From positions 1-64,000 of the forward strand of contig JAUCBJ010003036.1 of assembly GCA_032718475.1 (NCBI GenBank): a stretch of 64,000 nucleotides of DNA. The letters run 5' to 3'. Positions 712 to 45,372 of this stretch are shown here, one piece after another. The notes under the pieces are model-generated. The model was not told the origin of the DNA, searched no databases, and was given only the letters and a program-made list of their open reading frames with translations. Source of the DNA: Nemertoderma westbladi (taxonomy: Eukaryota; Animalia; Xenacoelomorpha). Numbering within the stretch: the first letter of the stretch is position 1; every line of letters begins with the position of its first letter. The position numbers were made by a program, and so were the translations under genes.

Positions 712-712
712 T

Positions 713-23111: not shown

Positions 23112-24725
23112 CTAATCGGTACTTTTGTTTCCCCTTTTACTGCATTAACCCCCTCAACCGGGTATGATTTCATCCCGCATTCTCTTACCAGCTCTCTCTC
23201 CCTGTCCTCTCTAATACTCTGGTCCGCAAATATATTTCCCTCCTCAATCCTCTCAGCTTTCCTCGTGTCTCGGTCTTTACACTCGTCCACCTCCATCTCA
23301 GCCCTTTCTACTTTCCTCGTGTCTTGCTCTTTATGGTCGTTCGCTTCTCTCGTATCCCGTTCTTTACGCTTATTCACTTCCCTCGCCTCCCGTTCTTTAC
23401 GCTCATTCACTTCATTCTCCCCTTGTTCTTTATGCTCACTCATTTCCTTCTCAACCCATTCAGCCTCCCTTGCGTCTCATTCTCTATACTCTCTTGCTAC
23501 TTTTTCAGCCTTCCCTTTGCACTCTCTCGCTAACTCCCTTTCCATGTCTAACAACGCAGTCCCTTCATCCAACTGTCTCTCTAACTCATTTTCGTCTAGC
23601 GCAACAACTATATCTAGCTGACATGCCAGAGCTATCTCTAGCACCCTTCTTGCTTTTGTGGAGGATGTGGCGGACTTTTTGGTTGCGACGGTTGCTTTCC
23701 CATCGCCTTCTGGTTCTACTACTTCTATCATATTTACTAGTGGCGCCCGTTGTTCTTCCGACGGATGACACCGAATCCTCCAGGTTTACCTCTGGTTTGG
23801 TGTCGTTCGAACCTGCCCATCCCACTAACTTAATCCCCCGCTACTAGATAAGGCCCTACGTACACCACACCAGATCTATCTCTAGCACCCTTCTTGCTTT
23901 TGCAGAGGATGTGGCAGATTTTTTGGTTGCGATGGTTGCTTTCCCGTCACCTTCCGGTTCTATACTTCTATCATATTTACTAGTGCCGCCCATTGTTCTT
24001 CCGATGGATGACACCGAATCCTCCAAGTTTACCTCGGGTTTGGTGTCGTTTGAACCCACCCATCCCACTAACTTAATCCCCCGCACATCTACTAGATAAG
24101 GCCCTACATACACAATACTGTACAGCATTATCTGTGATTGCAACAATTCACATAGTTCTGTGGCGACCTCCCTCGCCCTTTCATTCGCCAGTTCACCCTG
24201 TCCAGAAATGTGTATTGCACTCACCGAGTCGGTGCTCCTGTTTACCGGTGGTCCTGGCGTCCTTGAGTATCCTCCTTGTGGCATTGTATCCCCGTCGCAG
24301 GCGATCGCTCGTCCCGACATCATCCTCCTGAACTTCTTGACCCCTTTCCTTGTCTGGCGTCGCACCATTGGCCCCACCATTGCCGTTCTGGGGGGATGTC
24401 CGCCGCCTGTAGCCACTGGTTGGCTGGCGACTCCAGTGCTTCTCTATCTGCTCCCATCCCGTGTCGACTCGCGCTCCCATTCATCTTCTATCCGTCCACC
24501 TTCCTCCTCTCCAACCAGACTGTTGTCTCTTGGTAAATACAGTATGGTGGGCCAATAGCATCGAGTCGCCGCCTCCCTGATCATTGCGTCTCTGCCGCTT
24601 AGGGTGCGCAGCGGACTCCCTTCTCCACCAATCGAACTTTGGGGAGTTTGTTCGCTCATTGTGTTGGCGCTGGTGCTTGTTGTCGTCACAGATCTCATCG
24701 TAGGTTTTAAAGTCTGGTTTTAAAC

Positions 24726-25331
24726 TGTGATGGGATCCGAGTAGGCAAGGGATCCCAACTGGAGTGTGTTTTGAGTCGTATGGGGAATACGCATTGCTGC
24801 GTCCACTTAGTTACTGAAAGGCTGTTAAAGGGGCTGAAAGGCCAAAGGCCGATATAATAACTAAGTTTATATTATATGGTTATTGGTAATGTCAGATATA
24901 TGACTATCGGTAATACAGAACAATCAGTATAGCACAATAATAGCAGTAACAACAACGACGGTTTAAAACCGTTTGACTTCTACACTCAACATAGCCAACT
25001 GAACCACAATCAACAGAGTAACGGTTATATTTTGCATGGAAGATTACACACATTCCTAACTATGTTTGGCCTACCAATAAATGCGCGTAATTGATGGAAA
25101 GCTGCCCCACTATTGGCTGGTTTACTTCTTGGCCAATCCCTATTTTCCCCTGGCCCTATGCTGGCTTCCACTGAGATGTATTGGCATCTCTCTCTGGGTG
25201 ACAATGTATATTGCCTCGTTCCCTCTAGTATACACTATTGCGTTGGGCAATATTGCATATCTAATCGTGATTTGTAATCCAGGATTTCCCTATTTTCCAC
25301 TAGGTGGTGCAGCGGATTGGATCCACTAACA
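24726..25331 (-). repeat. Element A 5' LTR (606 bp)
   Basis: Minus strand TGTTAGTGGATCCAATCCGCT...ATCCCATCACA; termini homologous to the element B LTR (TGTTAGCTTATCCAATTCCGCT...ATCCCGTCACA). Confidence 0.82.
24998..25029 (-). promoter_or_regulatory. Putative TATA box plus Inr of LTR A
   Basis: Minus strand TATAA (25025-25029) and TCAGT (24998-25002); same 27-nt offset as in LTR B. Confidence 0.6.
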
Positions 25332-26259
25332 GTGCCCATGTTTCCATTTTCAAATATTCCTGTAGGCTACAGTAGTCGGTTCAACATTATACTGCAGTAC
25401 AGCAATACTGATACCAGACTACCTAAATATTAGCACTTAGCTAGACTTAGCACCTACCTGTCCCTCTTCCCTTGCTGGGTCGGGATTCTGCATTTCCAGT
25501 TCACAAATCCAATGAATTACGATAATTATTTATTATAATCAGTTGAGAGTTGATTTGGAACCTATTTGGATTAATTAAACAAGGCGTTTGAAGTAAATAA
25601 TTTAGTTTTTCATACACAATGTTTCACTATTATGCTTTTGTATTCTACTCCTGTACTGTCCATAGGACACAGTTTAAAGTTAGGACCTTTACCTATTCAC
25701 ACCTACAGACTACAAATTACTTTCATTTGCCAATGAATCTTAATCCTGTACAGGTAATAGATGTAATCTAGGTAAGTAATAAAAGATTCCAGTCTTCACG
25801 ACAATTTAAAAAATTTAAAATTTATTAAAATTAACTTTCATTTTAACTTCATAATAAAACTTACCTTGTTAATTTGTTTCCCACCTTGATGTGAATTATC
25901 TTCTTGGGTCAAACTTATCTGCATATACAGCAGATATCAGCATCAATATAATTGTTATTCATATAGACTTAAAGATATATATCTATCAATAATCAATATT
26001 TATCAATTCGCTTATGCACATCAACATTGCATTGCGATTAAATCTCTTTAGTAAAGGGAATACCACTATACTTTTTTTTTTGCTGACTACAAGTTAATTA
26101 CAATTAGCCGAGCCAGCGTTAATGAGTGTGGCTAATTAGTTACTGCGCACTTTCAGGTTAAAATTGCCGTATGGTACGTAACCCTAACCCTAGGTCATAA
26201 TACTGTACTCCAAGAAATTTAGTGGAAATTTCCGACATAATTATCATTTATTGCATTAA

Positions 26260-27036
26260 GGGGGGTATCGGCGACTGCAAAATTTTAAAATTTCCTGAAA
26301 ATTTTTCGAAATTTTGTTTCTTCTAATTTTCTGGTTTGATAGGTCTTTCACGTGGTGACATCGGTTTGCACCATTGAATAATTTTCCACCACAAAACAGA
26401 ACTTTTCAACAACATAATTTATTGGTAATATTCATGACTCTCTGCATAAAACAACCTTTTACTCAGTTTGCCGATTTTTACATTTTTCATCACTAAATTC
26501 CCTACTACTTTTTTATTTTTCACTCAATTTTTATCAAACATATACCAAAATGTTCAGCATCTATAGGGCTACAATCCTTAGTATTGGTTTTGTAACATAT
26601 GTCCATTTGGATGTTCTATGATCCATTATGTAACTGCTTCTCTTTGTCTATCTCAAAATATATGATGCCCGAAATATAGCCCGAACATACTAAAACCCCC
26701 ATAAATTTTTCAAAAACAATAATTATTTTGTGTTGAAATTTTCACAAAAGATAATCTACATCTAGGTTCATTGGACCAAACTCTTGGAAAGAGAACGGCA
26801 ACCCAGTTGGTACTACAGATCCTTCTGCATGATATATTTTTCATAAAAACCCTCAAAATCTTTACAAATTTTGAAAAAAGCCGACTTGCACAAAACGTCC
26901 CATATTTTTCGAACAAAATGGTTTGCGAAGGTATTTATACCCAGTTCTCTTAGTTAAAGATCACAGATAATTGTGTTAGAGTTTCAGAACAGAAGCTATG
27001 AAATTAAAAAAAAATAGATTTGGGATGATACCCCCC
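26260..27036. mobile_element. Non-autonomous DNA transposon (MITE), Kolobok-like
   Basis: TTAA on both sides (26256-26259, 27037-27040); TIR GGGGGGTATC/GATACCCCCC; no coding capacity. TTAA with GG termini fits Kolobok better than piggyBac (CC termini). Confidence 0.8.
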
Positions 27037-28128: not shown

Positions 28129-28133
28129 GTATG

Positions 28134-28167
<34 letters not shown>

Positions 28168-28231: not shown

Positions 28232-28869
28232 TTAAGGTTTGATTATTTAGAGCAGCAGTAGTTAAAGTACTCCTCTATGGGAGTCCATGCTGGACTCTAA
28301 CTGCTGAGGACACCAAATCTCTGGATGGCACATTCACAACAATGCTACGCCGGGTTCATTGTGTCAAGTACAATGCACACATCTCCAACCAGACACTATA
28401 TAACATTGGAGGTGTCTCATTGGTTCCCCCAAGCTTGACACTAGAACAAAATCGCCTCCGCTTTGCAGGACATTGCTTTCGCCGTGAGGACTAGCCAGTG
28501 CATAATCTTGTACTTTGGCAGCCTCATGGAGTGAATAAGCATGGTGGACAGCCCATGACTTTCTTGAGACGCATCTTAAAGGACACTGGCCTTGAAGATG
28601 CGGATAATCTAGCAAATATCATGGGTGATAGGGCGTTGTGGCGGTGCTATTTTGTCGATAAGCCGGCCCCATCATTCTTAAAAATGCAGCTGCAATGCAG
28701 CATGCCGATCCTAGTAGTAGTAGTAGTAGTAGACACTAGAACAAAATTGCCTCCGCTTTGCAGGACATTGCTTTCGCCGTGAGGAACAGCCAGTGCATAA
28801 TCTTGTACTTTGGTAGCCTCATGGAGTGAATAAGCATGGTGGACAGCCCATGACTTACTTGAGATGCAT
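28232..28869 (+). mobile_element. Second 3' fragment of the (GTA)n-tailed RTE-type LINE plus an internal re-copy
   Basis: 28232-28732 matches ~12963-13489 including the tail; 28733-28869 repeats 28439-28575. Confidence 0.9.
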
Positions 28870-28948
28870 AGGACACCATTCATGGGACACCAAATATAAT
28901 ACAGTCTTACGTGCAAAGTATGATGCATGAATCATACAAAGTATAATA

Positions 28949-29549
28949 CAGTCTCACGCTGCCCTACCCCACAGCCACAGTCTCACGCCGCCCTACCACA
29001 CAGCCACAGTCTCACACTGCCCTACCCCACAGCCACAGTCTCACGCCACCCTACCCCACAGCCACAGTCTCACGCCGCCCTACCCGACAGCCACAGTCTG
29101 ACGCCGCCCACAGCCACAGCCACAGTCTCAAGCTGCCCTACCCCACAGCCACAGTCTCACGCCACTATACCCCACAGCCAGAGTCTCACGCTGCCCCATC
29201 GCCCTACCTGCCGCCCTACCCCACAGCCACAGTCTCACACTGCCTTACCCCACAGACACAATCTCACGCCGCCCTACGTCACAGCCACAGTCGCACGCTG
29301 CCATAACTAACAGCCAGTCTCACGCCGCCCTACCCCACAGTCACAATCTCACGCCGCCCTACCCACCCCCTACCCCACAGCCACAATCTGATGCGGCCCT
29401 AACCCACAGCCACAGTCTCACGCCACCCTACCTGTCGCCATACCCCACAGCCACAGTCTCACACTGCCCTACCTGCCGCCCTACCCCACAGCCACAGTCT
29501 CACGCCAACCTACCCGCCGTACTACCACACAGCCACAGTCTCACACCGC
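28949..29549. repeat. 29-bp satellite, left arm
   Basis: Unit CCCTACCCCACAGCCACAGTCTCACGCCG with variants; continues at 48655 after the nested insertion. Confidence 0.95.
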
Positions 29550-29782
29550 TGTGGTGCACGGGCCGAAATGAGTTCTAGTTGAATAAGGCCCCCATGCAAC
29601 CAAGAAGAAAAGAAGATAGACAGATTTACAGATAAAGTATATCAGTATTGCAGTATGATATTCAAACAGGTTACAGCATTAGGTACAACAGCAGTTCTCA
29701 CATACCGGTAGGTAGGACTATATGTACCAATGGGTTAGGACCACACGACATATCATATATATCTCAATTTGAGTTCCCCACA
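29550..29782 (-). repeat. Element C 3' LTR
   Basis: TGTGG...CCACA; matches 48422-48654. Confidence 0.95.
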
Positions 29783-29849
29783 CTACACCCCCCCCCCCCC
29801 CCCCAGTGTGGTACTTGTATGAAACCTGTACACTCTTGAGTCTTTACAT

Positions 29850-31162
29850 TTAGATGCCCAAGCGTGATGGAAGTCGGGAAAACCTGCCTGACCTTGTGAT
29901 AGTTGGTTGAGGAGCTGAGACCGGAGTCGGCCGAGATGGTGTTTGAGCTGGGATGAATGGGGGCGTTTCTGGACGGAGATGGTTCAGTGGCCGGGTTGGT
30001 GTGTCATCTTTGTTGTCGTTGGACCCATCAAGCCTGGCTGGCTTTAGACGGTCGATCGAGATACACTCAACTTTGTCATTTGGAAACAGAAGCCGATAGT
30101 ATTTGGGAGTACGCTCCACAACAAAATATGGGCCTCTGTATGGTGGCTGGAGACCACGGCGATTCTTGTCCGGTTGCCGAACCCACACGAAGCTACACTT
30201 GTGAAGCTCAGGAGGAATGTAGGGAGCACCACCGGTATTGTGGAGTACAGGAGGCAGGCGCAAGTCAGCCATGGCACTCTGTAGGCGAGGAAGGAAAATA
30301 CTTTGCCGTGAGTTTCGGTCTTGGATAAGCCCAGGAGGTGGTGATTCATGGAACTGACCAGGAACCGAGATTGGGGCACCAAACACCAGTTCGCATGGAG
30401 CAGCGCCGATGTCCTCTTTGATAGTGGTACGGTAGCCCAGCAGGACTGTGTCTAGCTCGTCCGCCCAGTTGTCGGAACCCTCCAGCCGGGCTCGCAGGCC
30501 ATCCTTGAGCTGCCGATGCAGCCTCTCAACCATCCCATTGGCCTGTGGATGGAAGGCAGTGGTAGTCGTGTGCTGGGTCCCCAAGATCCTGTTCAAAGCC
30601 GCCCAGATCTCCGCAGTGAACTGGCTGCCCCGATCTGAGGTGATCCTCTGAGGGACTCCAAACCGTGCAACCCATGCGCTGAACAATGCTCTGGCACAGT
30701 CATCTGAGGTCGGCGGTCCAGCCATTGGAATCACCTCACACCATCTGGTAAAGCGGTCAATGATGGTGAACAGGTGGTCAAAACCCCGAGACACAGGGAG
30801 AGGGCCAACTATGTCAACATGGATGTGCGCAAAGCGCTCCAGGGGTGCATCGAGGTGTTGGAGTGGAGCCCTGGTGTGTTTGGAGATTTTGGCATACTGG
30901 CATGCGTGGCACGTCTGTGCCCACTGAATACAGTTCTTTCTCATGGAAGGCCAGACGTATTTGGAGGCCACCATCTGGGCAGATGCCCGGGCTTCAGGAT
31001 GCAGTGGTGCGTGCAATGCCTGGAAGATTCGTCGACGCCAGGATGCTGGAACGAATGGCCGCGGTTGACTGGTCCGTCTGATGTTGCACCAGAGGCTGAC
31101 GCCATTGTCGGCACTTCGTATCTGTCGCAAGACGAGGCCGGTGGCCAAGTCTCCAGCCTGAA
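29850..31162 (-). pseudogene. pol: Element C pol, integrase part (separated by the B insertion)
   Basis: LHAPLHP...CHAC, HVDIVGPLP, TSDRG and NGMVER motifs; removing B restores the in-frame junction DLTRLLQ-AGDLATG. Confidence 0.93.
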
Positions 31163-31688
31163 TGTGACGGGATCTACGGATCCCGGTTTATCGGTTGGGT
31201 TTTCTATCCAAGCGTCCCCGCCGTGTGTGAAAGGTAAAAGAGTTCTGGTGTTCGGTTATATGTATAAGGTATAATAGTCTGATATATATATAGTATAACA
31301 CAACAGGTAATATAAGTATGATGGCGGTAGCGGACGGTGACAGAAGTCCCCGTTCCACCCTACTGATCTGACTGAGTAAACTGAATGAATGATTACAGGT
31401 TACTGGTTATATTGCACGGTGGCCTTATTGCTCCTCAATCGATGCCTTGCCCCCCTCTGATTGGTTGATATCCCTGTTGGCACCCTTTGGAGTGTTTCCC
31501 TTCACTCCCTGTGTTCTCTCTCGGTTAGGGGTTTGGCCCCTGACCCTTATTGTGTGTGTCTCCTTTGGGGCCTATTGTCCCCGTTTACTGGGCTGACACG
31601 AGGTTGACTGGTAATCAACCTCGTGCTCCCAATATTGCTTTATGGCTCACTCTATGGGTTTGTGTTAGCGGAATTGGATAAGCTAACA
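31163..31688 (-). repeat. Element B 3' LTR
   Basis: Preceded on the minus strand by the PPT; matches 44847-45372. Confidence 0.93.
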
Positions 31689-32049
31689 CTCCCCCCCATG
31701 CTATCTTCCCGGTGAGAAGATAGCATCCAACTCAAGTGCGCTACAATTCCGCTGGATCCCGATCTATTATCGGGTGTGGGGTGGGTCTATTTTTTTTCGG
31801 AGTCGGCTTTCCAGGCCGCTCCCTATGGGTATGATGTCACTACCCTCTGGCGTCTCGTGTCGGGCCGATCGTGCGCTTCTTTCACACAATTTTTGTTTCC
31901 CCAACACTCTCACCATTCTACTCCAACTCTCGCATACCCCCGGACCTCCTCGTCCCACACTCTTCCTCTCACTTCTCCTCCCCCACACTTGAATTGCGCC
32001 CACGCTCTCTTCGCACTCCGCACTATTACTCCATCCCTCCTTGTCACTC

Positions 32050-33520: not shown

Positions 33521-34240
33521 AATTATTTTCTTATTTTAATTAAATAATCATTTTATATTTTGCGCGTGGGAAGGGCGTCTCGCCCTCATTCCCACCCCCC
33601 TCAGTCCAAAACTTTGGACGACTAAAAACTCTCACGTGCCCCTTCTTCCGGTAGGCACTCTCCTGCTGCCCTCCTATACGTCCTCTAACTCTTCGCCACA
33701 CTCTCTTCGGTGCTACCTTTGCTGGCCTCCCCCTTCGTATGTGCGCTGGCATTAAAGCCCTCGACGACCCCCGCTCGTCCCTCGGTATACGCGGTGTCTG
33801 CCCGTGCAATGCCCCCTCGCACTGTGTCCGTCCTGCGTGTGTATGCAACACGCCTCCTTCTACTTTCCCGACTCCCTTTTTTTTTCAATTTTCAATTTAT
33901 TTTTCCTTTCAACAATTTCCTATTTCAGTACAATCAATACAAACATTGGATGAAGGTGATGGTGATGACGAAGTAGCAGACAATAGCGAAGCTAGTATAG
34001 CCTGCTACTCCGACTGGAAATTGATGGGTTGGAGGTGGGGTGGGGGGGGGGGGGTGGGTGGGCGTGTCTGCTCCTCTAGAATTTGTCTGGTTTTTGAGCT
34101 TTATTGTATGAGATATAATTGATGGTCAGCCGAATAGTGTAGCAGTAGCATTCTGGGATAGAAGACTTTGAGAGGCAATAAATGGCAGCGACTATAATAA
34201 AAGATACGTGGTGAGATATAAAAAGTGGGCATGGGCCTAA

Positions 34241-37200
34241 CTACAGGGACATTAACAGGTGGTATTTATACGCTGACGAAAATGCTTTTTTTGATTTTGA
34301 GTGTTTTAATTGAGATGGTAGTGCGTTCCAAATTGAAGGGCCTTGATAATTCATGGAAGCTTTGGAGGAAGTTAGGCGGACCTTCGGAATAGAGAAACCA
34401 TCCGTAGTAGCAAGGCGAGTTGGATATCTGTGTACAGAGGAAATTTTGGTGAATAATGAGCCTAGAGTAGAATCAGGTTTAAATAAGTTAGCGTTTACAT
34501 CGTACATGAGGGATCCTACTTGGTGCTTATAGAGGAGGTCAATAGGTAGGATGCCGAGAGACTTATAGATAGGTTTAGAAGAAGCTCGGTAGTGCGAGAA
34601 AGTAATACAGCGGAGGAGTTTGTTTATTTTTATACGTAGGGGTTGTAGGGTATAAGAATGGGTTTTGCCCCAGAGTAGAATGCCATACAATAAATAGGGG
34701 TGTACAAGTGAAAAATATAGTTGGCGAAGTATACGAAGGGGAAATATGTGACGCAGTTTGTAGAATATTCCGGAGGTTCTAGAGATTTTAGACGTAATAT
34801 GTTTAATGTGAGATTTCCAGTTTAAGTTGTCATCTACTAGAACCCCTAGAAATTTAGAATGTGGTTTCCGAGTAATGGGGGAATGGTTAATTAGTATTGG
34901 GTCGGAGTGAGTATTAGGGTAATTAGAGTATATAGCATATTCAGTCTTAGATAGATTGAGAGATAGACGGTTGTCTGATAGCCAGTCCGCAATCTTAGAT
35001 AATTCAGAGTTAGTTATGGAGATTAAAGAGTCCAGATTAGGTTTAGCTATATGAAGAGTTGTGTCGTCAGCAAATAATGTTGAGATTAGTGAGGTAGCAT
35101 TGGGAAGGTCGTTGATATACAATAGGAATAGGATTGGCGAGATAGTGGCGCCTTGTGGGACACCACATGTAATAGGTAAACTAGAAGAATGGTGGTTACC
35201 GATAGAAACAAATTGGGTTCTAGAATCTAGGAAGCTTGAGAGTAGTTGCTGTGGTATTCCCCGGATACCATAGGAGTTTAGCTTAGAGGTTAGGATAGAG
35301 TGATCAATAGTGTCGAAAGCCTTTTTTAGATCTATATAGATAGCACTGGTGAATAGTTTTTGGTCTAAGTATTTGTGAATATTCTCTACAACGGATAGCA
35401 GAGCATGGGATGTTGTAGATTTAGGGCGAAAGCCGAATTGAGAATTAGACAATATGGAATATTTTTTTAGGTACGAGAGTAGTTGGTTATTAATTATGGA
35501 TTCGTACAGTTTGCTTATTACGGGTAGAAGAGAAATAGGTCGGTAGTTATTAGTGTCCGATGGGTCGGCACTCTTGAATACGGGAATGACTTTGGCCGAT
35601 TTAAGAGCCTTAGGGAAGAAGCCTTGAGTTATCGATAGGTTAATTAGGTGAGATAGATGAATAGATAGTAATTTAGCAGACAACTGTAATAGTTTAATGG
35701 GGAAACAATCATGAGATGCAGATTTGGGGTCTAATTGGAGGATTAGATATTCGACTTCGACAGGGGATGTCTCTACCAGTGAAAATGAGTTAGAGCGAGT
35801 GTGGTTAATGAAGCGTAGTGGGGAGCGGTTGGATTTAGGAATATCGTTGGCTAGTTTAGGTCCTATGGTAGTAAAGTGTAGGTTGAAAGCTTCAGCAATT
35901 TGCTTTGGGTCGGTGATGGTTTTGGCAGAATTATCAGTACGGATAGTTAGTTTTTTTGGAGTATTTAAATGTTTTGTTTTATTTAATGCAGAGTTTATAA
36001 TTATCCATGTTTTGCGTATGTTACCTGAGTTAGTTTCGAATTCACTAGAGTAATAGGCCTTCTCGGCAGCCCTTAGAGTAGAAGTTAATTTATTCCTATA
36101 GGTTTTGTAAGCAAGAGTATTAGCAGGGGTAGGATTCCTAATGTAAATTCTGTATAATTTGTTTTTATTAATGGAACTTTTAATAAGATTATCAGTCATC
36201 CAGGGTTTAGATAATTTTTTACGGGGTGGAATAGATTTCTTAGGTAAATGTTTGTCGCAGATAGAATTAAAATCGGAGTAGAAAGAGTCTAGTTTGTCCT
36301 TGTCGGCTATAGTTGGAGTTAGATAAGACCAAGATTTACTACTGGCTACGTCTCTCAGAAATTGATCCTTGTTAAAACGCGAGTAATCGAATATTGTGTG
36401 TGGAGCTGCTGGATGAAAGTAACAGGAGTACTTCTGGAGGATAACGAATGTAGCATAGTGATCAGAAGTGCCTATTTGTGAGTTAAAAGTACCGGCTGTA
36501 GTAGTATAATTAGTAATGTTTGTAAGTATATGATCTATAAGAGTTTCAGAGTGTATTGTCTGATCGGGTAGTTCATTATGAAAAACACGTGTAGGTTGGT
36601 TGATAAGTTGTATAAAACCGTAGGAATTAATGAGGTCAGTATAGGATTTGGAAGTAGTGGTTGATTTTAGAAGGTTAATATTAATATCTCCTGTGATAAT
36701 TACATCATAGTTGTTTTTAGTAAGTTCAGTTAGAGCTAGATCGAGTAATTCAAGAAAATCAGTAGGGAGTACAGAATGTCTACGGTAAATAGTGCCTAGA
36801 ATTAAGGGCTTGGCATTTTGTGGTCTTTTGATTTGCACCCATGAATTTTCAAGACCATTCATTTTTAAATCAGGACGTGGGGACACATCCAGGGATTCCT
36901 TGACATAGATAGCAGTACCACCACGATTTAATTTGTCGCCTGTTTTCCGGATGTCAAGATAAGGGGTGTGAAAACCGGGAAAAGTGATTTCATTTAAATT
37001 TGAGTTACTGTCTAAAAAAGTTTCTGAAAATGTGATGACATCGAATTTGGTAGTTAATGTTAAGAGAAAAGTTTCAATATCAGATTTATTTTTGGGTAAG
37101 CTGCGGGCATTAAGGTGGAATATTTTTAGGCCTGTATTATCTAAATTTTTAAAGTCGTTGTTAAAAGTATCTTCTGTAAAATAACCGTTATTTATATTAA

Positions 37201-37522
37201 GTGAGACTGTATTATTTTCGGGGTCAAGCTGGCTAAATGTTTGGTTTATAATGTTTGAGTCTGTGTCATCATTTATTTCAGGAGAAAAATAGTGAAAAAT
37301 GTCGCTGTCATTATTGTCTACAACGGAAAACGGAAATATATCGAAATTACAGAATATACAGTAGACATAGGACATTGGGGTGGCTTCTATCTCAGAGCTG
37401 GATTGGTAAGATCCACATTGTGCATGATATGAATGGCCGCAAATATTACATTTAAAGTAGTAGTCCGAGGAGATAAATTGAGAGAAGCAGAGCGCGCATG
37501 AAGGGGTAGAAGGTTCATGCAT
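34241..37522 (-). CDS. LINE ORF2: PHD finger, APE endonuclease, reverse transcriptase
   Basis: 1093-aa uninterrupted ORF: CALC..CNIC..HAQC..CIFC, HLNARSL, FSETFL, GDIN, SDHY, NYRPISLL, DLKKAFD, GVPQG, LFADDT. Confidence 0.95.
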   Translation of the reverse strand: MHEPSTPSCALCFSQFISSDYYFKCNICGHSYHAQCGSYQSSSEIEATPMSYVYCIFCNFDIFPFSVVDNNDSDIFHYFSPEINDDTDSNIINQTFSQLDPENNTVSLNINNGYFTEDTFNNDFKNLDNTGLKIFHLNARSLPKNKSDIETFLLTLTTKFDVITFSETFLDSNSNLNEITFPGFHTPYLDIRKTGDKLNRGGTAIYVKESLDVSPRPDLKMNGLENSWVQIKRPQNAKPLILGTIYRRHSVLPTDFLELLDLALTELTKNNYDVIITGDININLLKSTTTSKSYTDLINSYGFIQLINQPTRVFHNELPDQTIHSETLIDHILTNITNYTTTAGTFNSQIGTSDHYATFVILQKYSCYFHPAAPHTIFDYSRFNKDQFLRDVASSKSWSYLTPTIADKDKLDSFYSDFNSICDKHLPKKSIPPRKKLSKPWMTDNLIKSSINKNKLYRIYIRNPTPANTLAYKTYRNKLTSTLRAAEKAYYSSEFETNSGNIRKTWIIINSALNKTKHLNTPKKLTIRTDNSAKTITDPKQIAEAFNLHFTTIGPKLANDIPKSNRSPLRFINHTRSNSFSLVETSPVEVEYLILQLDPKSASHDCFPIKLLQLSAKLLSIHLSHLINLSITQGFFPKALKSAKVIPVFKSADPSDTNNYRPISLLPVISKLYESIINNQLLSYLKKYSILSNSQFGFRPKSTTSHALLSVVENIHKYLDQKLFTSAIYIDLKKAFDTIDHSILTSKLNSYGIRGIPQQLLSSFLDSRTQFVSIGNHHSSSLPITCGVPQGATISPILFLLYINDLPNATSLISTLFADDTTLHIAKPNLDSLISITNSELSKIADWLSDNRLSLNLSKTEYAIYSNYPNTHSDPILINHSPITRKPHSKFLGVLVDDNLNWKSHIKHITSKISRTSGIFYKLRHIFPLRILRQLYFSLVHPYLLYGILLWGKTHSYTLQPLRIKINKLLRCITFSHYRASSKPIYKSLGILPIDLLYKHQVGSLMYDVNANLFKPDSTLGSLFTKISSVHRYPTRLATTDGFSIPKVRLTSSKASMNYQGPSIWNALPSQLKHSKSKKAFSSAYKYHLLMSL

Positions 37523-38100
37523 GGGGCGTTTAGTAAAGCGGGTGAGATGACATGAAATGATAAGCGAATGATGTTAGTAGTAATATTAACCACTATAAAT
37601 CATGACGTATACACCTGACTGACATGACATAATATATCAATTAATTATAAGAAATATTTTAGAACTAACAGTAATATATATATATATATATGTGAATGGG
37701 ATAATCAAAAACGGTATTAATTTAAATTTGACTTTATCCGTAATAAAGGTTTTCATCAGAAAGAAAATAAAATAAAGTAAAGATTGGTCCGTTCAAAACT
37801 TAGAGATAGGGCTAGTGTTTTTCATTTGTGGCGATTATTATCTTTCTGTTAAATAGTCCAAATGGATCTATGGTTGAAACATATATAAGTTCAATTATTA
37901 TCCCTTCAAAAAAAAATTTTAACCTACGATACCGGTACGCTTACATAGAATAACAACAAATTAAAGGCTAACAGAGCCAATAGTACAGTAATAGCCCACG
38001 ACCAATACTGCAATAGGTGAAATGAAGCTGCAACAGTACAGTGGGTAGTACATGACATCGCTCAATACTGCATTCAGTGTCGAGTTAGGCTCGATTCGAA

Positions 38101-38808
38101 TTATCCAGAAGAGTTTGGGATTGGTGGGCTACGACGATCAATGGTTTTCCTAGTTGGTAGGGTAGTCAACGACTCAAGGTCGGATTGGTTCGCAATGCGC
38201 AGTGGTAAATCATTTTCTTTAATGCGAATCATAACAACTCCATTGAATGAATATACCGCTCGTATTTCGTGTTTACGTTGTAGCTCACGCGCTTTGTTGT
38301 ACAGCTCAGCCCGGGATGGAATTAGATGTTCCGTTACGTATAACGGATTTGGCAACGATTTTTTACTCCGGATAGCTTGTAGTCGAGAAGCGTGGCCTAG
38401 AAGGCGTATTATAATAGGGCGACATTTAACTTTACCGTCTCCAGCAGCCCTTTCCTTGATTTTCTTGCCTAGCCTGTGGAACACATCGATCATAGAAGGA
38501 GGAATTCCGAGTTTATTTGTAATATCAAAGACAGCGGAACGTTCTTCATCTGGGTTGGTGTTTTCTGGTACAGCATGAATTAAGATATCGTGACGGCGAG
38601 AGTACTGGGCCAACTCTTCGTTTTCTGCTTTTAGCTGCTTGTTTTCTTTGACTAGATGATCAATGTTTTTTATCATGCCGGGGATAATCTTTAGAGTATC
38701 TTTTATTGCCGCGACGTCGTCTTTGATACCACTGAGGGATTTCAATTCGCTTTTAAGGATTTCGAGAGAATCCAGAATATCGTCACCTACGTCTTGCCAT
38801 CGAGTCAT
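38101..38808 (-). CDS. LINE ORF1 (coiled coil plus RRM-type nucleic-acid binding)
   Basis: 235 aa with LAQYSRRHDILIHAVPE, FHRLGK, RPIIIRL and YVTEHL motifs typical of L1/CR1-type ORF1. Confidence 0.85.
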   Translation of the reverse strand: MTRWQDVGDDILDSLEILKSELKSLSGIKDDVAAIKDTLKIIPGMIKNIDHLVKENKQLKAENEELAQYSRRHDILIHAVPENTNPDEERSAVFDITNKLGIPPSMIDVFHRLGKKIKERAAGDGKVKCRPIIIRLLGHASRLQAIRSKKSLPNPLYVTEHLIPSRAELYNKARELQRKHEIRAVYSFNGVVMIRIKENDLPLRIANQSDLESLTTLPTRKTIDRRSPPIPNSSG

Positions 38809-38989
38809 TTTGTGAACAGTTGGTGCGGAGGGTCGGTGCTGGCCAACGAGTTTAGCGTCTTACCGGTATCGCGGTAGTTACAGAGTTAGGCCTAATTATT
38901 TTGGAGATCAGCCAGTCTGTCAGTCAGTTGCCTACATCAAGTGAAGTACCGGTACCTGTACATCACCACTCAATCCAAATCATCAATAA

Positions 38990-41900
38990 TCAATTATTTT
39001 TATCAAAATCACATTTCTGTTTAATCTTGTTATTCTTCCTTCGTTTCTCAACAGTTATCCATTGGTCAGAAGAAATTGGAGTAAAAGATTCTGCTATTGC
39101 AGGTAAACAGGTGTTTATTCGACGACCAAACATTAAAGTAGCTGGAGCTACACCGGTTGAAGAATGTTGAGATGCAGCTAATTCCATAAACCCTTGAGCG
39201 AATTCATCTGAATGAAAGTCGCCATCAACTCGTTCTAATAATAACTTGACCTTTTTCACTGCGGCTTCTGCAGATCCATTGCTTTGGGGAAATTTTGGCG
39301 AACTAGGGCACCAATGGATTGACCAAGTTTTGAACCAAATCATCATTTCTTCTGATGAAAAACAAGTTTGACCATCAGATCTGATTACTTGAGGTACTCC
39401 ATACTCCATGAATAATGCGCGAAGTAGTTTTTTTATATATGATGATGATGTTGACTCATCGCAAAGGCGAATCCACAAGAATCCTGTTAACTCATCAACA
39501 ATTATGAGAAATTCCTGGCCCCCATACTTTGCAAAGTCCGTGCACAATACCTCCATTGGCCTTGTTGCACAAGGATAGGGAGTGAGTGGTTCAGCCGGAA
39601 GTGCTGGTCTAGATCTCTGACATGCATGACACTCATTCACCACTCGTTCAACGTCATCTCCAAGTCCAGGCCAATAGAAAAGTTCTCGTGCTCTAGCTTT
39701 CATCTTCTCTATTCCTGTGTGTGACTTGTGTAATTTACTCAATAATTCTGGTATTAATAATTGAGGAGGTATAAGCCGCTGGTTTCTGAGGATAACTCCA
39801 TCATTTCCAACTGTTAACTCATGTTTTATCTTTTTAAATTTTCTTGAATAATTGTTTTTTGAGAAATCGCCGGTATTTAATGCTACTATCAGTGATTGGT
39901 AATCCTGGTCTTCCATAGCCTTTGATCGTACCTGATCTAATCCTCTGTTGGGTATGAACTCTTTAACTGCTTCAGTCACGGCTGCTGCACAAATGGTTGC
40001 AAACTGATCAATATCAGTATTATCATCTTCATCTGGAGGTGAACAAGGGTATCGAGATAATGCGTCTGCCACATTATTTTCTTCTCCTTTTTTCCACTCA
40101 ACTGTAAAATTAAATCCAGTGAGTTTTGTTCGCCAATTTAGTATTCTTTTATTTTCTATCTCTGCAAGACTTTGTATATTGAAGATTGTCGTCAGTGCTC
40201 GGTGATCGGTTTGGATTGTGAAATGTGGACATCCCTCAACGTATATTTTAGTTTTGTTAATGGCCCAGTAGATTGCCAATGTTTCAAGTTCTACTGCTGC
40301 ATAATTTTCTTCTGCCGATCGTAACATGCGGCTGCCACATTGAAGTAGTGTCCGTGGTTCATTCAACTCCCCCTCCTGGAAGAGAGCAAATCCAAGTCCA
40401 CAAGTACTTGCATCTGTTTCTAAGATGAGATGTTTACCTCGTTCAAACATTCCGAGAATAGGTGGTGACAATAAAATATCCTTTGTTTTTTCCATTGCCT
40501 CAGTGTGTTCTTGTAACCAATGAAATGTGTTACGAGTTTGTAATATATTTCGGAATGGGGTCATTGTTTGTGCTAAATTTGGAATAAATGATGCCATCTG
40601 GTTGGCTAAACCAACAAATGAGCGTAAGTCTGTTCTTGTCTTTGGAATAGGAAATGACCTAATAGCTTCCACTTTACGTGAATCAGCTGTAATATGTCCA
40701 GCTGATATATGATAGCCAACAAAGTCAATTTGTTCTGTCGCCAATACACTCTTTGTAGAACTAATTGTGAACCCATGTTTCACACAACGTTCTAGAACTT
40801 CTGCCACATTTAGAACAAGTTCAGGTAATGTCTCCTTTCCAATAGCAATATCATCCATGACTTTCGATAAGTCATCAATGCCATTGAGTGCCACATCCCC
40901 ACGGAATGAAAAGGCATCTCCAGTGCTGGAAAAACCCATGGGACTACGTAAAAAGCGAAATTTACCTTTATTTGTTAGAAAAACGGTCATCCAGGAACTT
41001 TCATTATCGAGCTCCATTTGCCAATATCCTTTTACGAGATCTATTTTAGCAAAGAATCGGTGGTTCCGTTGAAACACATTCACAGCCTCCGCAGGTGTGG
41101 GTACTCTATGGATAGTGCGATCTATCTGATCATTGAGTTTCTTCAGGTCAACACAAATACGGACATCTCCTGATGGTTTGCCAACAACCACCAGTGGGTG
41201 ACACCATGGTGTTGGTGTATCCCCAACAGGTGTGATGATTCCGCGATTCAACATATAATTTAAGGCTTCATCAACCTTTTCCTTCAAATGAATTGGGATT
41301 GGTCGTGCTGCTGTAATGGCACTTGGAGTAGCATCTTCCTTGAGAAAAAAATGCATTGGTTCTCCAACTATGGGGAACTCCTTATGTTTGCTCATGGGCT
41401 TCTCTGCCCCTGGTCTAGTCCTTTCACATCCTCTCCCTTTCCAACACTCTCCGGATCTGTGTCCTTTTACCACACATCGATGACATAGTCCGTTTGCATC
41501 TGTGTAGGCTACACGATCTCGTTTGGGCAACGCTTGCCAGTACTTGCAACTCCTGGTCTTATGGGTTCCGTCCCGATGTAATTGACATTGGAATCCTGGA
41601 TTATAGCGTTTCCTGTATAGTCCTTCACGTATCGCGCTTAGGTTTATATGTACCGATTTAATGTTTTGGTTGTCTAGACTCGGCCTACTGGGTATATTGG
41701 GATTGTGTTTATTTTTGGTGTTATTTTCTTTCTGTCCCTGCCACGGTGTGGTCCTACTACCAGCTAACTGTGGACTGGTAGTCCCCTGTACGGCCGCGTG
41801 TGGTGGTGACTGTCCGCACGACCTGCTCTCGTCCAGGGAGTTCGATGTTCTTGCTCCTATCGGGGTATATTGTCGATATTGTGATGGGGGAATGTCACCC

Positions 41901-42832
41901 TGTCCCCCCCCAGCCGGTATGTTTGGTACTGGGGTTGATGTTAATATATTGGGGCCCATACATCTATCTCCAATAACTCCCCCCTCCCCTGGATATATGT
42001 TATGTCCCTGTGTATTATAGTCATGCTGCTGTACCGATATAGGCCTACCTACCTCTCGCCTACCTACCGGTATGTACTCCGCGGCTCCCGGGTTTAACCC
42101 CGTCGCTCGCGCTACCCCATCGCCTACTCTATCTCTCCCAGCATGGCCTATAATAGTATGTGCAGTAAGGCCTACAGTATGTCCTGCAGTCTGCATGTGC
42201 CCTTTGGAACCGAAGTTTATTCTTCGCGAATCTCGAATCTCCCCGCGACTACTGCACTCTCGATCGGCAGCTATATCCCGTCGGGAAGCTTCTCTCCGAT
42301 CCCCTCTCCTGTTCTCGACTCTGTATTGGTACGTCTTGTACCCCTCTCTTGGCGTGCGGTGCGTTTCTCCGGGGCGACGGCAATCTCCCGAAGTTCGACC
42401 CCACTGGCTCCCTGACTCCATCTCTACTGTCGACGGTCCGTTATCCGTCCTCGCACTGCTATCGTTCGTGGCGACACTTCTTCTACTATCTTCTCTTCTT
42501 CTCTTTTCTGTGTAGTATTCCGGCTCGTGAGGTCTCTCGTCGACTTCCCGGTTAAACTCCACTGTTCTTCTTCTCTCTTCTGATCGGGCTCGACGCTTCG
42601 TCTGCCCTCTCGCGACGTCAACCTGCCTCTCTCTGCTCGATCGCACGCCGCTGGGGACACTCGCAATCCCCCTATTACTCTCCGTCGCCGGGTGTTGCGG
42701 TTTACCTGATTCGGCCCGCGCATTATCCGCTGACGGCTGTGGGACACTCTCTGCCCCCCCTCTCTCTCTACTAATCTCTCGCGGTGGGGTGCCCGTAGCC
42801 CCCCCCCCCCCACCCGCCACTTCTAACTTCAC
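38990..42832 (-). CDS. Chimeric ORF: low-complexity N-terminus and BEL-type zinc knuckles fused to Mag-like Gypsy RT-RNase H-integrase
   Basis: 1280 aa open; CQLHRDGTHKTRSC and LCHRCVVKGHRSGEC, then KIDLVKGYWQM, VMDD, TDAS, VELE, TDH, H-H-C-C, TDFA, RSDG, SNGSAE; no protease or capsid. Confidence 0.85.
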   Translation of the reverse strand: MKLEVAGGGGGATGTPPREISRERGGAESVPQPSADNARAESGKPQHPATESNRGIASVPSGVRSSRERQVDVARGQTKRRARSEERRRTVEFNREVDERPHEPEYYTEKRRREDSRRSVATNDSSARTDNGPSTVEMESGSQWGRTSGDCRRPGETHRTPREGYKTYQYRVENRRGDRREASRRDIAADRECSSRGEIRDSRRINFGSKGHMQTAGHTVGLTAHTIIGHAGRDRVGDGVARATGLNPGAAEYIPVGRREVGRPISVQQHDYNTQGHNIYPGEGGVIGDRCMGPNILTSTPVPNIPAGGGQGDIPPSQYRQYTPIGARTSNSLDESRSCGQSPPHAAVQGTTSPQLAGSRTTPWQGQKENNTKNKHNPNIPSRPSLDNQNIKSVHINLSAIREGLYRKRYNPGFQCQLHRDGTHKTRSCKYWQALPKRDRVAYTDANGLCHRCVVKGHRSGECWKGRGCERTRPGAEKPMSKHKEFPIVGEPMHFFLKEDATPSAITAARPIPIHLKEKVDEALNYMLNRGIITPVGDTPTPWCHPLVVVGKPSGDVRICVDLKKLNDQIDRTIHRVPTPAEAVNVFQRNHRFFAKIDLVKGYWQMELDNESSWMTVFLTNKGKFRFLRSPMGFSSTGDAFSFRGDVALNGIDDLSKVMDDIAIGKETLPELVLNVAEVLERCVKHGFTISSTKSVLATEQIDFVGYHISAGHITADSRKVEAIRSFPIPKTRTDLRSFVGLANQMASFIPNLAQTMTPFRNILQTRNTFHWLQEHTEAMEKTKDILLSPPILGMFERGKHLILETDASTCGLGFALFQEGELNEPRTLLQCGSRMLRSAEENYAAVELETLAIYWAINKTKIYVEGCPHFTIQTDHRALTTIFNIQSLAEIENKRILNWRTKLTGFNFTVEWKKGEENNVADALSRYPCSPPDEDDNTDIDQFATICAAAVTEAVKEFIPNRGLDQVRSKAMEDQDYQSLIVALNTGDFSKNNYSRKFKKIKHELTVGNDGVILRNQRLIPPQLLIPELLSKLHKSHTGIEKMKARARELFYWPGLGDDVERVVNECHACQRSRPALPAEPLTPYPCATRPMEVLCTDFAKYGGQEFLIIVDELTGFLWIRLCDESTSSSYIKKLLRALFMEYGVPQVIRSDGQTCFSSEEMMIWFKTWSIHWCPSSPKFPQSNGSAEAAVKKVKLLLERVDGDFHSDEFAQGFMELAASQHSSTGVAPATLMFGRRINTCLPAIAESFTPISSDQWITVEKRRKNNKIKQKCDFDKNN

Positions 42833-43707
42833 TATTTCTTACTACACTTCTATACCCCTCTTGTGGAACATTCTCTGCCCCCCCTCTCTCGCCACTAATC
42901 TTATGTGGTGGGGCGCCCGTAGCCCCCCCCCCACCCGCCACATCTAACTTCAATATCTCTTACTTCGTCTCTACACCCCTCTCTAGTCGACGCGCTGTCT
43001 CTACTACGGCTGGGTCTATTCACCCCCGCCTCCCTCTCTACTACTGCGTGGCCCATCAGGCCTACTTCGGGTTGGCTCAACCCCGCTACCTCCTGCCTAC
43101 TAACTACGTGGCCTGCCAGGCCGCCGTCGGGTTGGCTCAACCATGCCACCTCCTGCCTACTAACTACGTGGCCTACCAGGCCCCCGTCTGCCGGGTTATG
43201 TACGTCCGACACGCTCACATTAATAGCACCATTCCCAATATTATTTGTTAAATCAATTAAATTATTAGAATTTGAAACGGGATTATTATTTAAATTATTT
43301 AAATTACTTAGATCACTACCATTCTCTAAACTTAAATTATTATTCGAATTATTTTGCGAGTTTGAATTGAAATTATTATTTAGAGTATTTGTATTTAAAT
43401 TACTACTACCTGGTAAAATATTATTATTTCCTGTAATAAAGGGATTAGGGTTATCTACTACGGTACTATTAATATTAACATTTCTTAACGTACTACTACT
43501 ACCCCCCCCCCCCCCGCCCGTACGGCTACACCAGTTCTGGCTCTCTCGCCCGGTGCCTGTAAGTGGGGTCTCACTCTCTGACAGTTCCAACCGCGCCAGT
43601 TTTAGTCGGCGCTGATTCAGTTCGGCTTGATATTGCGCAAGCCTCCCTATCCGGGCACATAAATCATCCCGCTCACGCTCTTTCTCTATCTCTCTCTCTC
43701 TGTACCC

Positions 43708-44757
43708 TCATAAACTTTGCTCGGCCGTCTCTCTCGCAAGCATATCAAACCAGCTCGCCGGCTCGCTCTCTACTCTCATCTCCCGATCTCTACGCTCCTC
43801 GGCTCTCTCTCTATTCTCCCTTGCAAACTCTAATAATCTGGTTTCACTCCTCAGTCGCCCCTCTAACTGTTTCTGCTCTGCCGCCGCCATTCCTAATTTA
43901 AACTTTAGATTTATCTTCAGCACCCTTCTTTCTTTCGCGGAGGATGTAGCAGACTTATCGGTTGCGACGGACTCCCGTCGCCCCTCCGTCCTACCAACTT
44001 TCCCCCGCTTCCCGGAACTTCCTCCAACCGACGAGACCGAATCCTCGGAGTTAACCTCGGATTCGCCCTCCCCAGGTCTCTTCCAACCCACTAACTTAAA
44101 TTCCCTGGCATCGACTAAGTATGGCCCTATGTACACTACACCAGGCCCCATACCCCTACGTTGCCATAGCCAAAACAGTTCGAAGGCAACCCCTCTCGCT
44201 CTCTCCCTGGCCAGTTCTCCCTGCCCAGAACGCACTAGGTGATCAAAGTATCTGTTCGACTCACCTAGTCGTCTCCTCAGTCTCACCTCGTCTATCTTCG
44301 CCCCTCCTTTGGCCTCTCTCAGTTGCTCCCGGGTCGCGAGGTAGGCCCGTCGAAGTCGATCAGAAACCCCGACGTCCTCGTCGCCGACCTCTCCTCCGTC
44401 TCTCCGGGTCCGACGTCGTACCGACGGCCCCACCGTCGCCGTTCCGGTGGACCGTTCGTCGTCCTCAGCCTGTGGCTGGCCGGTGACATCGGTATGTCGA
44501 CCCTCACTCCGCGTCGACTCGTCTTTCTCTTCTCCTCCCTTCTCGTCTCCTTCCCTCGACTCGCTCTCCGGTTGTAGACGACCCCCCACATCTTGGTTCG
44601 CCGGGTTGCTCGTTATCGACGTGGCGTCAACCTGCGTCGACGTGGTCGGCGTAGCATCGATCGGCGTCGTGGGTTCGTATCGTCTCGCCGTGGCCTCGCG
44701 GATCGTTAGATCGTCGTCCGGGGTCCGCGGCGGTGTCGTTCCTCTATCTCGACTCAT
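43708..44757 (-). CDS. First ORF of element B, charged/low-complexity protein of unknown function (possibly an extended Gag N-terminus)
   Basis: 349 aa starting ~90 nt after the LTR; GQGELARERAR...YIGPYLVDAREFKLVGW is conserved in element A (23856-24416). Confidence 0.55.
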   Translation of the reverse strand: MSRDRGTTPPRTPDDDLTIREATARRYEPTTPIDATPTTSTQVDATSITSNPANQDVGGRLQPESESREGDEKGGEEKDESTRSEGRHTDVTGQPQAEDDERSTGTATVGPSVRRRTRRDGGEVGDEDVGVSDRLRRAYLATREQLREAKGGAKIDEVRLRRRLGESNRYFDHLVRSGQGELARERARGVAFELFWLWQRRGMGPGVVYIGPYLVDAREFKLVGWKRPGEGESEVNSEDSVSSVGGSSGKRGKVGRTEGRRESVATDKSATSSAKERRVLKINLKFKLGMAAAEQKQLEGRLRSETRLLEFARENRERAEERRDREMRVESEPASWFDMLARETAEQSL

Positions 44758-44846
44758 CTTCGTCTTTAGTAGCTGGTCGTCGCTAGCTAGGACGGTAGCT
44801 CTATTCTATCTCTGTCAGGGCAGCTGGGCGGATCTGATTCTGTCAC

Positions 44847-45372
44847 TGTGACGGGATCTACGGATCCCGGTTTATCCGTTGGGTTTTCTATCCACGCGTC
44901 CCCGCCGTGTGTGAAAGGTAAAAGAGTTCTGGTGTTCGGTTATATGTATAAGGTATAATAGTCTGATATATATATAGTATAACACAACAGGTAATATAAG
45001 TATGATGGCGGTAGCGGACGGTGACAGAAGTCCCCGTTCCACCCTACTGATCTGACTGAGTAAACTGAATGAATGATTACAGGTTACTGGTTATATTGCA
45101 CGGTGGCCTTATTGCTACTCAATCGATGCCTTGCCCCCCTCTGATTGGTTGATATCCCTGTTGGCACCCTTTGGAGTGTTTCCCTTCACTCCCTGTGTTC
45201 TCTCTCGGTTAGGGGTTTGGCCCCTGACCCTTATTGTGTGTGTCTCCTTTGGGGCCTATTGTCCCCGTTTACTGGGCTGACACGAGGTTGATTGGTAATC
45301 AACCTCGTGCTCCCAATATTGCTTTATGTCTCACTCTATGGGTTTGTGTTAGCGGAATTGGATAAGCTAACA
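44847..45372 (-). repeat. Element B 5' LTR
   Basis: TGTTAG...GTCACA on the minus strand; flanked by the CTGAA TSD. Confidence 0.93.
45064..45095 (-). promoter_or_regulatory. Putative TATA box plus Inr of LTR B
   Basis: Minus strand TATAA (45091-45095) and TCAGT (45064-45068). Confidence 0.6.

Follow-up and report, generated by a model that had tools for sequence, protein, structure and literature searches.

Reverse transcription in BEL/Pao elements is held to start from a tRNA, and the ICTV profile of the Belpaoviridae, in which replication is called poorly understood, lists a primer site of 18 nt that matches host tRNA-Arg or tRNA-Gly (PMC8742986). Self-priming is described for Ty3/gypsy chromoviruses, namely Tf1 and Tf2 of Schizosaccharomyces pombe, Tj1 of S. 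japonicus and the Tf1/sushi and Tcn1 groups, in the available text of three sources (PMC7175516, PMC4600332, PMC5341516). According to the first of these, likewise in its available text, the first 11 bases of Tf1 RNA anneal to the primer site, and the RNase H cut falls between base 11 and base 12 (PMC7175516). For the plant TAR lineage of Copia (Houba, Osr-1), self-priming has been predicted from at least 10 complementary nt within 0-5 nt of the LTR end (PMC6317226, available text). Our search of a partial literature collection recovered no paper on self-priming in BEL/Pao elements.

We analysed a 64,000-nucleotide stretch of the Nemertoderma westbladi contig JAUCBJ010003036.1 (hereafter the window), which contains two LTR elements, A and B, with the following features in and around their LTRs:

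24726..25331 (-): 5' LTR of A, 606 bp, TG...CA, homologous to the LTR of B
44847..45372 (-): 5' LTR of B, 526 bp
31163..31688 (-): 3' LTR of B, with 5 differences in 526 from the 5' LTR
31689-31697: purine tract of B
31158-31162 and 45373-45377: 5-bp target duplication of B
24998..25029 (-): TATAA (25025-29) and TCAGT (24998-25002) of A, putative start site
45064..45095 (-): TATAA (45091-95) and first TCAGT (45064-68) of B, putative start site
24716..24725 (-): post-LTR word of A, located where the primer site is expected, without TGG
24961..24970 (-): segment of the A LTR complementary to this word, predicted 3' end of a self-primer, followed by CGTC
44838..44846 (-): post-LTR word of B, located where the primer site is expected, without TGG
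45021..45029 (-): segment of the B LTR complementary to this word, followed by CGTC

B thus carries TG...CA LTRs, a purine tract and a short target duplication, and A one LTR only. As no 3' LTR of A was found within the 64-kb window, the LTR ends of A rest on homology to B (alignment score of the two LTRs 26.8, versus -113 +/- 15 in 100 shuffles). An earlier note on this DNA had claimed that neither element has a TGG-type primer site and that the 10 nt (A) or 9 nt (B) abutting the 5' LTR are instead the perfect reverse complement of a segment within that LTR, directly followed in both cases by CGTC. All of this holds at the coordinates listed above, and neither match can be extended by even one more Watson-Crick base. 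The two words differ and pairing is nonetheless kept, again as the note had it; by our count, 5 of the 9 pairs are altered on both sides. The words do not cross-pair (longest matches 5 and 6), and the segments align with each other, that is, they occupy the same aligned place in two homologous LTRs. The 27-nt spacing between TATAA and TCAGT, which we take to be an initiator-like word, is also confirmed as common to both elements; B has two extra TCAGT words at 45055-59 and 45046-50. Counted from these promoter words the segment would begin at +31 (A) and +38 (B) of the predicted RNA, TATAA lying 59 nt (A) and 66 nt (B) upstream of it.

In 20,000 dinucleotide shuffles per LTR, such pairing at offset 0 had P=0.0006 for A and 0.0006 for B, and with offsets 0-3 allowed 0.0027 and 0.0020, respectively. 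Internal k-mers with a complement in the LTR number 7 of 11,116 in A and 30 of 13,138 in B, and three Gypsy elements of the window with tRNA-type TGG sites, used as controls, pair over at most 5 bases with their own LTRs. We rejected a primer encoded in another part of the element: within the window the complement of each word occurs solely in the LTR copies, and no tRNA gene was found. In this A and B differ from Cer7, a BEL-type element of Caenorhabditis elegans that reportedly encodes its own tRNA-like primer, a tRNA mimic in its 3' region, and so does not rely entirely on host tRNA. Of the best-supported differences listed for B-family contigs in public DNA data, none falls in 44838-46 or 45021-29, and the flanking positions 44836, 44837 and 45033 are variable. 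In a public run that we guess to be RNA (X6), coverage of B is confined to its U3 part.

The internal regions hold the following coding remains:

13625..17972 (-): broken BEL/Pao gag of A, with Cys-His boxes, protease remnant and integrase tail; no RT/RNase H
23112..24715 (-): 5' internal region of A, homologous to its counterpart in B
38990..42838 (-): ORF of B, 1282 codons; BEL gag remnant with two Cys-His boxes, in frame into Gypsy RT-RNase H-integrase
33555..33880 (-): integrase tail of BEL type plus a 3' motif in B, with homology to A 13603-14075

The BEL/Pao origin of both elements, asserted in the earlier note, is borne out by a DUF1759 domain in A (15824-16213, E 8e-8) and by the nearest full-length relatives, which are BEL/Pao polyproteins with Peptidase_A17, DUF5641 and DUF1759 (P0033, P0041) or with Peptidase_A17 and DUF1759 (P0049). 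DUF1759 is absent from B, and the homology between A and B skips that region. Both have lost their own BEL RT, RNase H and integrase core, with protease and integrase-tail remnants left; A and B are non-autonomous BEL/Pao-derived deletion products. The long ORF of B is mostly Gypsy pol, an unrelated piece, not BEL pol; the joint with the BEL gag lies near 41420, neither a capsid nor a protease was found in the 1282 codons, and the Gypsy piece has K02A2.6-like named relatives, with no chromodomain listed by Pfam. That the pairing signature of B is owed to this Gypsy pol was rejected, as A lacks an ORF of this type and the signature is also seen in intact BEL relatives. The gag of A shares only ~30-35% identity with its relatives, and an attempt to place it in their tree failed, its end branch of 3.45 joining another long branch. 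Named relatives come from aquatic invertebrates. A word-index protein search with the gag piece of A gave no match and an Atlas search weak zinc-knuckle leads only; among viral contigs the LTR-end DNA pattern had 12 matches, 0 of them similar to the window, and a protein scan found no relative. In their DUF1759 gag, Cys-His boxes, integrase tail, TG...CA LTRs, purine tract and 5-bp duplication the elements resemble the Belpaoviridae, but neither they nor any of the 31 placed relatives considered below has the 18-nt tRNA-Arg or tRNA-Gly site of that family (PMC8742986).

The relatives are 31 BEL/Pao entries from metagenomes with placed LTR ends. Loss of the complementarity among relatives, which the earlier note had put forward as evidence that would count against it, is not what we observe; instead, covariation extends lineage-wide through these distant BEL/Pao elements. 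Pairing of at least 10 nt (10-14 bases) with the own LTR is present in 22 of the 31, versus 29 of 922 non-cognate word-LTR pairs, and pairing of at least 11 nt in 19 of 31 versus 9 of 922, where 24 of the 31 LTR ends were assigned manually, at ACA|GT-type sites and with knowledge of the pairing, and the counts are not independent because the families are related. Where the point at which the two LTR copies diverge fixes the LTR end, 7/7 families pair over 10-13 nt and 0/7 have TGG; a tRNA-type site is found at no placed LTR end, be it of A, B or the 31 relatives. The pairing relatives display 17 different words. In A, B and 19 of the 22 the paired word directly abuts the LTR end (offset 0); in the other three its offset is +3 or +4. 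The matches of A (10) and B (9) are shorter than the 11 usual among relatives. Nine relatives fall below the 10-nt mark: on visual inspection six have a matching half site, L045 and L086 each carry a mismatch, and one further relative is not covered. When the LTR end was freely chosen in 24 other families, 10-nt matches appeared in 10, of which 9 were chance-like and one (L054, outside the count of 22) is a clear case.

In 16 of the 22 pairing relatives the partner of the word exists only across a predicted intron joint, and one further family has both forms. The criterion of the intron search was GT and AG only; the donors of these canonical-looking introns are GTA in 14/16 (background 24%) and the acceptors YAG in 16/16 (background 51%), though in L013 the donor may fall outside its LTR. 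Two families hold an exact intron-free copy beside intron copies (the L018 3' LTR beside the L018 5' LTR and L023; L035 versus L021 and L025), and hence the joining takes place in RNA that is subsequently reverse-transcribed. In both A and B the partner is uninterrupted, and an intron-built primer was rejected for them, as 0 of 847 (A) and 0 of 547 (B) possible introns lengthen the pairing. Given that the partner is intron-split in most relatives, A and B belong to a wider system as intron-free forms. An intron-split stretch sets these BEL/Pao elements apart both from the Tf1-like elements, for which the available texts make no such mention, and from the TAR lineage, a plant Copia group for which the available text mentions no intron-split primer (PMC6317226).

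Folding predictions add the following elements:

24731..24757 (-): hairpin GGGATC...GATCCC predicted close to the A LTR end and shared by B
44852..44869 (-): hairpin predicted close to the B LTR end
24679..24689 (-): 3' arm of a rival helix in A; its 11 bp, two of them G-U, are formed with 24946-24956
45030..45064 (-): B leader; its predicted partner is 44805-44837, behind the post-LTR word
44897..44901 (-): GGACG in B, which is predicted to pair with CGTCC behind the B segment; same word in A at 24800-24804

The folding results are mixed. When A is folded from the start to +35 nt, its segment-word pairs are predicted with p 0.96-0.98; when 65 nt behind the LTR are included, the 24946-56/24679-89 helix is preferred and these pairs have p <0.4. 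In B the leader pairing reaches -30.2 kcal/mol (P about 0.002); in A it does not exceed chance expectation (P 0.31 and 0.55). For A and B, folding predicts a stem behind the primer as well as a U5 hairpin, and with the pairing forced it does so for many relatives; titles cited for Tf1 refer to such structures there. Competing predicted folds in both RNAs would suit a reading in which the pairing is real and selected, but serves as a structural switch in packaging, dimerisation or translation, with some other primer in use; the rival helix of A adjoins the first ATG-containing stretch behind the LTR, and the long leader pairing of B would fit as well. Against a switch stand the near-constant offset of 0, the polarity, which is that required of a primer, and the uniform want of tRNA-type sites, and we regard it as unlikely. 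A host tRNA fragment or other small host RNA might alternatively prime, with the LTR segment as a copy or decoy: Copia lineages use half-tRNA primers according to the available text of PMC6317226, and most words of the relatives begin with GT and are A-rich. Yet each of the 17 words matches its own LTR, most of them only after intron removal, and not the LTRs of other families, so that we find this reading hard to credit. A mature tRNA end, for its part, would give TGG.

The start of the RNA bears on how closely these elements follow Tf1. If it began at the segment itself, with a primer of 9-11 nt and TATAA/TCAGT not marking the start, the mechanism would be that of Tf1, which uses its own first 11 bases (PMC7175516, available text). 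The B helix is indeed most stable in that form, with p 0.94 from the segment; folding from the first TCAGT gives 0.11 and from the third 0.59, and forcing it costs 0.9 (first) and 0.7 kcal/mol (third). Against such a start, TATAA lies too far from the segments in both elements and fits TCAGT, the B leader pairing begins at TCAGT, and the first exon of intron-bearing relatives would be only 4-7 nt; we therefore deem it very improbable. Coincidence, or a single template switch by which LTR sequence was copied beside the LTR end, gains from the short words (9-10 nt) and the A/T-rich, nearly palindromic word of A, but deserves practically no credence, being already refuted by the relatives (7/7 independently bounded ones pair, and partners are intron-split) unless A and B are unrelated to them in this trait, and facing the same aligned position with 5 double changes in two diverged LTRs.

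Judging from sequence, we consider it quite probable that A and B belong, as non-autonomous elements, to a BEL/Pao lineage whose primer site pairs with the LTR of the same element and not with a tRNA, and which likely uses its own RNA as primer. The pairing, the BEL/Pao origin and the covariation support the earlier proposal of tRNA-independent self-priming from an internal R segment, with two refinements. One is the intron-split partner of most relatives, described above; the other is that the primer would not be a free internal piece but, provided that the RNA starts at TCAGT, the whole capped 5' fragment of ~40-46 nt, pairing through its 3' end. We infer the start site, the cut and the priming itself from sequence features, in the following order: 1) The RNA would start at TCAGT, with the segment 30-37 nt further downstream. 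2) The segment, which A and B have ready-made and which host splicing would put together in intron-bearing relatives, would anneal to the post-LTR word. 3) The annealed word would adjoin the stem starting directly behind it and the hairpin near the LTR end. 4) RNase H of an autonomous BEL partner would cut behind the segment (AC|C). 5) The capped 5' fragment, about 40 (A) or 46 (B) nt, would prime minus-strand DNA at the first U5 base. 6) Plus-strand copying of the primer 3' end would rewrite the primer site in each cycle, by which both words would stay matched. Like Tf1/sushi elements, in which the complementary stretch is ~11 nt according to the available text of PMC7175516, PMC4600332 and PMC5341516, A and B have a primer site beside the 5' LTR complementary to what would be the R region of their own RNA; in the former a cut behind the paired stretch yields the 3'-OH, and in A and B this cut is predicted. 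Their signature at the LTR end is of the kind from which self-priming was predicted in the TAR Copia elements (PMC6317226, available text). Unlike Tf1/sushi elements, they belong to the BEL/Pao superfamily, with a BEL gag and tail in place of a Ty3/gypsy chromovirus pol, and the predicted place of their paired stretch is not base 1 of the RNA but 30-37 nt further in.

We also lean, with less assurance, towards a broader reading: a large aquatic branch of BEL/Pao may have dropped tRNA priming completely in favour of its own capped 5' RNA of ~40 nt, cut behind a pairing of 9-14 nt. In the main clade the spliceosome would assemble the pairing stretch, so that splicing would license reverse transcription, and the uninterrupted form of A, B and two clades that lie outside the intron-bearing clade is maybe the older one. 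If true, this tRNA-free route in a widespread animal lineage would be another origin of self-priming beside those of the Tf1/sushi Gypsy and TAR Copia elements, and would explain why primer-site finders fail on such BEL/Pao elements. Their short words yield exact, testable predictions of RNA ends. The elements may further stand outside control by host tRNA fragments, and in the intron-split form host splicing would be coupled directly with priming.

The bases directly behind the 5' LTR of A and B, the two BEL/Pao-derived LTR elements of the window, form at the primer-site position a word that pairs with a segment of the element's own LTR. In A the 10 post-LTR bases (24716-24725) are the exact reverse complement of 24961-24970, and in B the 9 post-LTR bases (44838-44846) are that of 45021-45029; re-reading the window bore out the positions that the earlier note had given for both words and both segments. 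Each pairing is flush with the LTR end and has the polarity required of a primer. The elements concerned are:

LTR elements of the window
A, (-) strand: BEL/Pao-derived, with one LTR (24726-25331), cut off near 13590
31163-45372, (-) strand: B, BEL/Pao-derived; LTRs differing at 5 positions, purine tract, 5-bp target duplication
38990-42838, (-) strand: ORF of B, in which a BEL gag remnant is fused in frame to an uninterrupted Gypsy RT-RNase H-integrase piece
29544-48672, (-) strand: Gypsy element with TGG primer site, host of B
17973-23111, (+) strand: Gypsy element with TGG primer site, inserted in A in opposite orientation
526-4817, (+) strand: Gypsy element with TGG primer site

Tested against 20,000 dinucleotide shuffles per LTR, the word-segment match had P=0.0006 in A and in B, or 0.0027 and 0.0020 with offsets 0-3 permitted; an LTR partner of this kind exists for 7 of 11,116 and 30 of 13,138 internal k-mers. 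As a control, the three Gypsy elements carry TGG sites and show a self-complement of at most 5 bases. The LTRs of A and B are homologous (score 26.8 versus -113 +/- 15) and their segments align with one another; 5 of 9 pairs are altered on both sides, and cross-pairing of A's word with B's, or the reverse, is absent. None of the 847 possible introns tried in A or the 547 in B lengthened the pairing, so the partner is uninterrupted in both. Public DNA contigs from a single organism hold many members of the B family; among the best-supported differences listed, none falls inside the word or segment and three fall just outside. The partner ends in AC in A, B and several relatives, and so does a short purine-rich word in front of it.

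An alignment of 45 BEL proteins, built around one full-length match of A, was scanned against metagenome contigs and gave at least 596 matching stretches, at least 542 of them relatives; the best 80 of these, forming 54 families, were analysed. The LTR end was set by the divergence point of two LTR copies in 7 families and placed by hand in a further 24 cases, giving 31 entries from 30 families. In all 7 families with divergence-fixed ends the self-pairing with the LTR covers 10-13 bases, and none of them has a TGG site. Consistent with the lineage-wide self-priming proposed in the earlier note, relatives retain the complementarity: at least 10 bases pair in 22 of the 31 entries (24 ends being hand-placed) versus 29 of 922 non-cognate pairs, and at least 11 bases in 19 of 31 versus 9 of 922 under identical scoring. 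The 22 pairing entries hold 17 different words. Judged by eye, the 9 misses comprise six matching half sites with an incomplete LTR, two mismatches and one site that is not covered. In 24 families, 11 of them missing the 5' end, no LTR end was placed; a free scan of LTR ends there found matches in 10, one real-looking (locus L054) and nine chance-like. The latter imply that placing ends by hand can raise the counts, which leaves the 7 fixed ends as the clean set.

Among the 22 pairing entries, 16 pair only across a GT-AG intron, 5 pair contiguously and one family has both forms. The predicted introns of the 16 span 98-612 nt, with GTA donors in 14 (background 24%) and YAG acceptors in all 16 (background 51%), the search having demanded just GT and AG; as the families are related, the 16 do not count as independent events. 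Two families (L018/L023; L035 with L021/L025) have an exact intron-free LTR copy beside intron copies, an indication that the RNA is spliced and then reverse-transcribed. The L084 word (4418-4430) is the sole paired word seen to begin with AT rather than GT at offset 0; by eye, a 12-nt intron joint matching it is present in each of the two LTR-like copies. In an unrooted RT-RNase H tree with 46 rows (7 proteins and a single locus from each of 39 families, 15 other families being left out) every intron-bearing family fell inside one 40-row clade (99/97), with the contiguous L071 and L074/L089/L092 outside it. The latter clade has short LTRs that start with TGTTAG, as in A and B, and an uninterrupted self-complement of 10-12 nt lying 3-4 nt off the LTR end; its members are the top but weak matches to the integrase tail of A. 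A gag tree gave no placement for A.

In both LTRs TATAA lies 27 nt upstream of TCAGT, an initiator-like word, and 59-66 nt upstream of the segments. This spacing makes an RNA start more likely at TCAGT than at the segment. From these promoter words RNA is predicted to start at TCAGT, and the primer would be the capped 5' end of that RNA, a fragment about 40 or 46 nt long annealed through its 3' end; by analogy with Tf1, the self-priming Gypsy-type element of Schizosaccharomyces pombe, an RNase H cut would precede priming. Beginning at TCAGT, the leader of B is further predicted to pair with the 35 bases that follow the word (P 0.0017 and 0.0013); leader pairing there is not above chance in A. 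The predicted folds contain a primer helix, immediately followed by a stem, and a hairpin close to the LTR end. Two predictions, however, count against the mechanism: 1) with more downstream sequence the fold of A shifts to a rival 11-bp helix; 2) from the first TCAGT the primer helix of B is a minority fold (p 0.11), short by 0.9 kcal/mol. The rival fold of B includes 44895, one of the five positions at which its LTRs differ.

The number of LTR differences, purine tract and target duplication point to a recent insertion of B, which sits between the RNase H and integrase of its Gypsy host. A-B homology spans the 5' region, gag remnants and integrase tail; DUF1759 is present in A and missing from B, and BEL RT is missing from both. 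Full-length relatives of A, the four named ones from copepod, limpet and hemichordate, are BEL/Pao polyproteins. The Gypsy piece within B has no LTRs or protease of its own, and its top named relatives are crustacean, which would make a crustacean host probable. Behind it comes a LINE (33880-38960, (-) strand) with an endonuclease-RT ORF (34241-37573), a poly(A) tail and a short upstream ORF weakly matching a baculovirus FP domain (E 0.0007). Directly behind the integrase stop A and B share a word rich in G and a short inverted repeat (13625-13700 and 33555-33630, (-) strand); in B these lie about 1.9 kb upstream of the purine tract and may be a further purine tract or act as an RNA signal. 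The long 3' untranslated region of B (32000-33550) consists of short strand-biased tandem repeats with units of about 34-71 nt. Repeated CTGATGAG words at the truncation point of A (11719-11826, 13489-13591) may resemble hammerhead ribozyme cores of Penelope-like elements. A long C-rich satellite with 29/41/70-nt units, higher-order repeats and long open frames occupies 48500-64000 and 28800-29550, and a second, 53-nt satellite about 6300-8800.

Cer7 has a self-encoded, tRNA-like primer. BEL/Pao elements are credited in the ICTV profile with an 18-nt site for tRNA-Arg or tRNA-Gly (PMC8742986). The terms 'PBS' and 'tRNA' are absent from the main text of three BEL/Pao surveys (PMC554778, PMC6238403, PMC3118150), and the accessible portions of PMC13524379, PMC6934838 and PMC3601003 hold nothing on BEL priming. 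No paper on BEL/Pao self-priming or an intron-split primer appeared among the literature listings; earlier mention is possible in subscription papers, Repbase/GyDB notes or supplements. In Tf1 the primer site pairs with the first 11 bases, and the RNase H cut falls between bases 11 and 12 (PMC7175516); other papers describe Tj1 and Tf2 as following this scheme (PMC4600332, PMC5341516) and predict self-priming for plant Tcn1 Gypsy and TAR Copia elements (PMC6317226, PMC2864245). Judged by its sequence, the feature of A and B would act like Tf1 self-priming, yet it lies outside the Tf1 group. The self-complementary feature is real and lineage-wide, and it is quite probable that the A/B lineage primes from its own RNA; A and B themselves would need an autonomous BEL partner.
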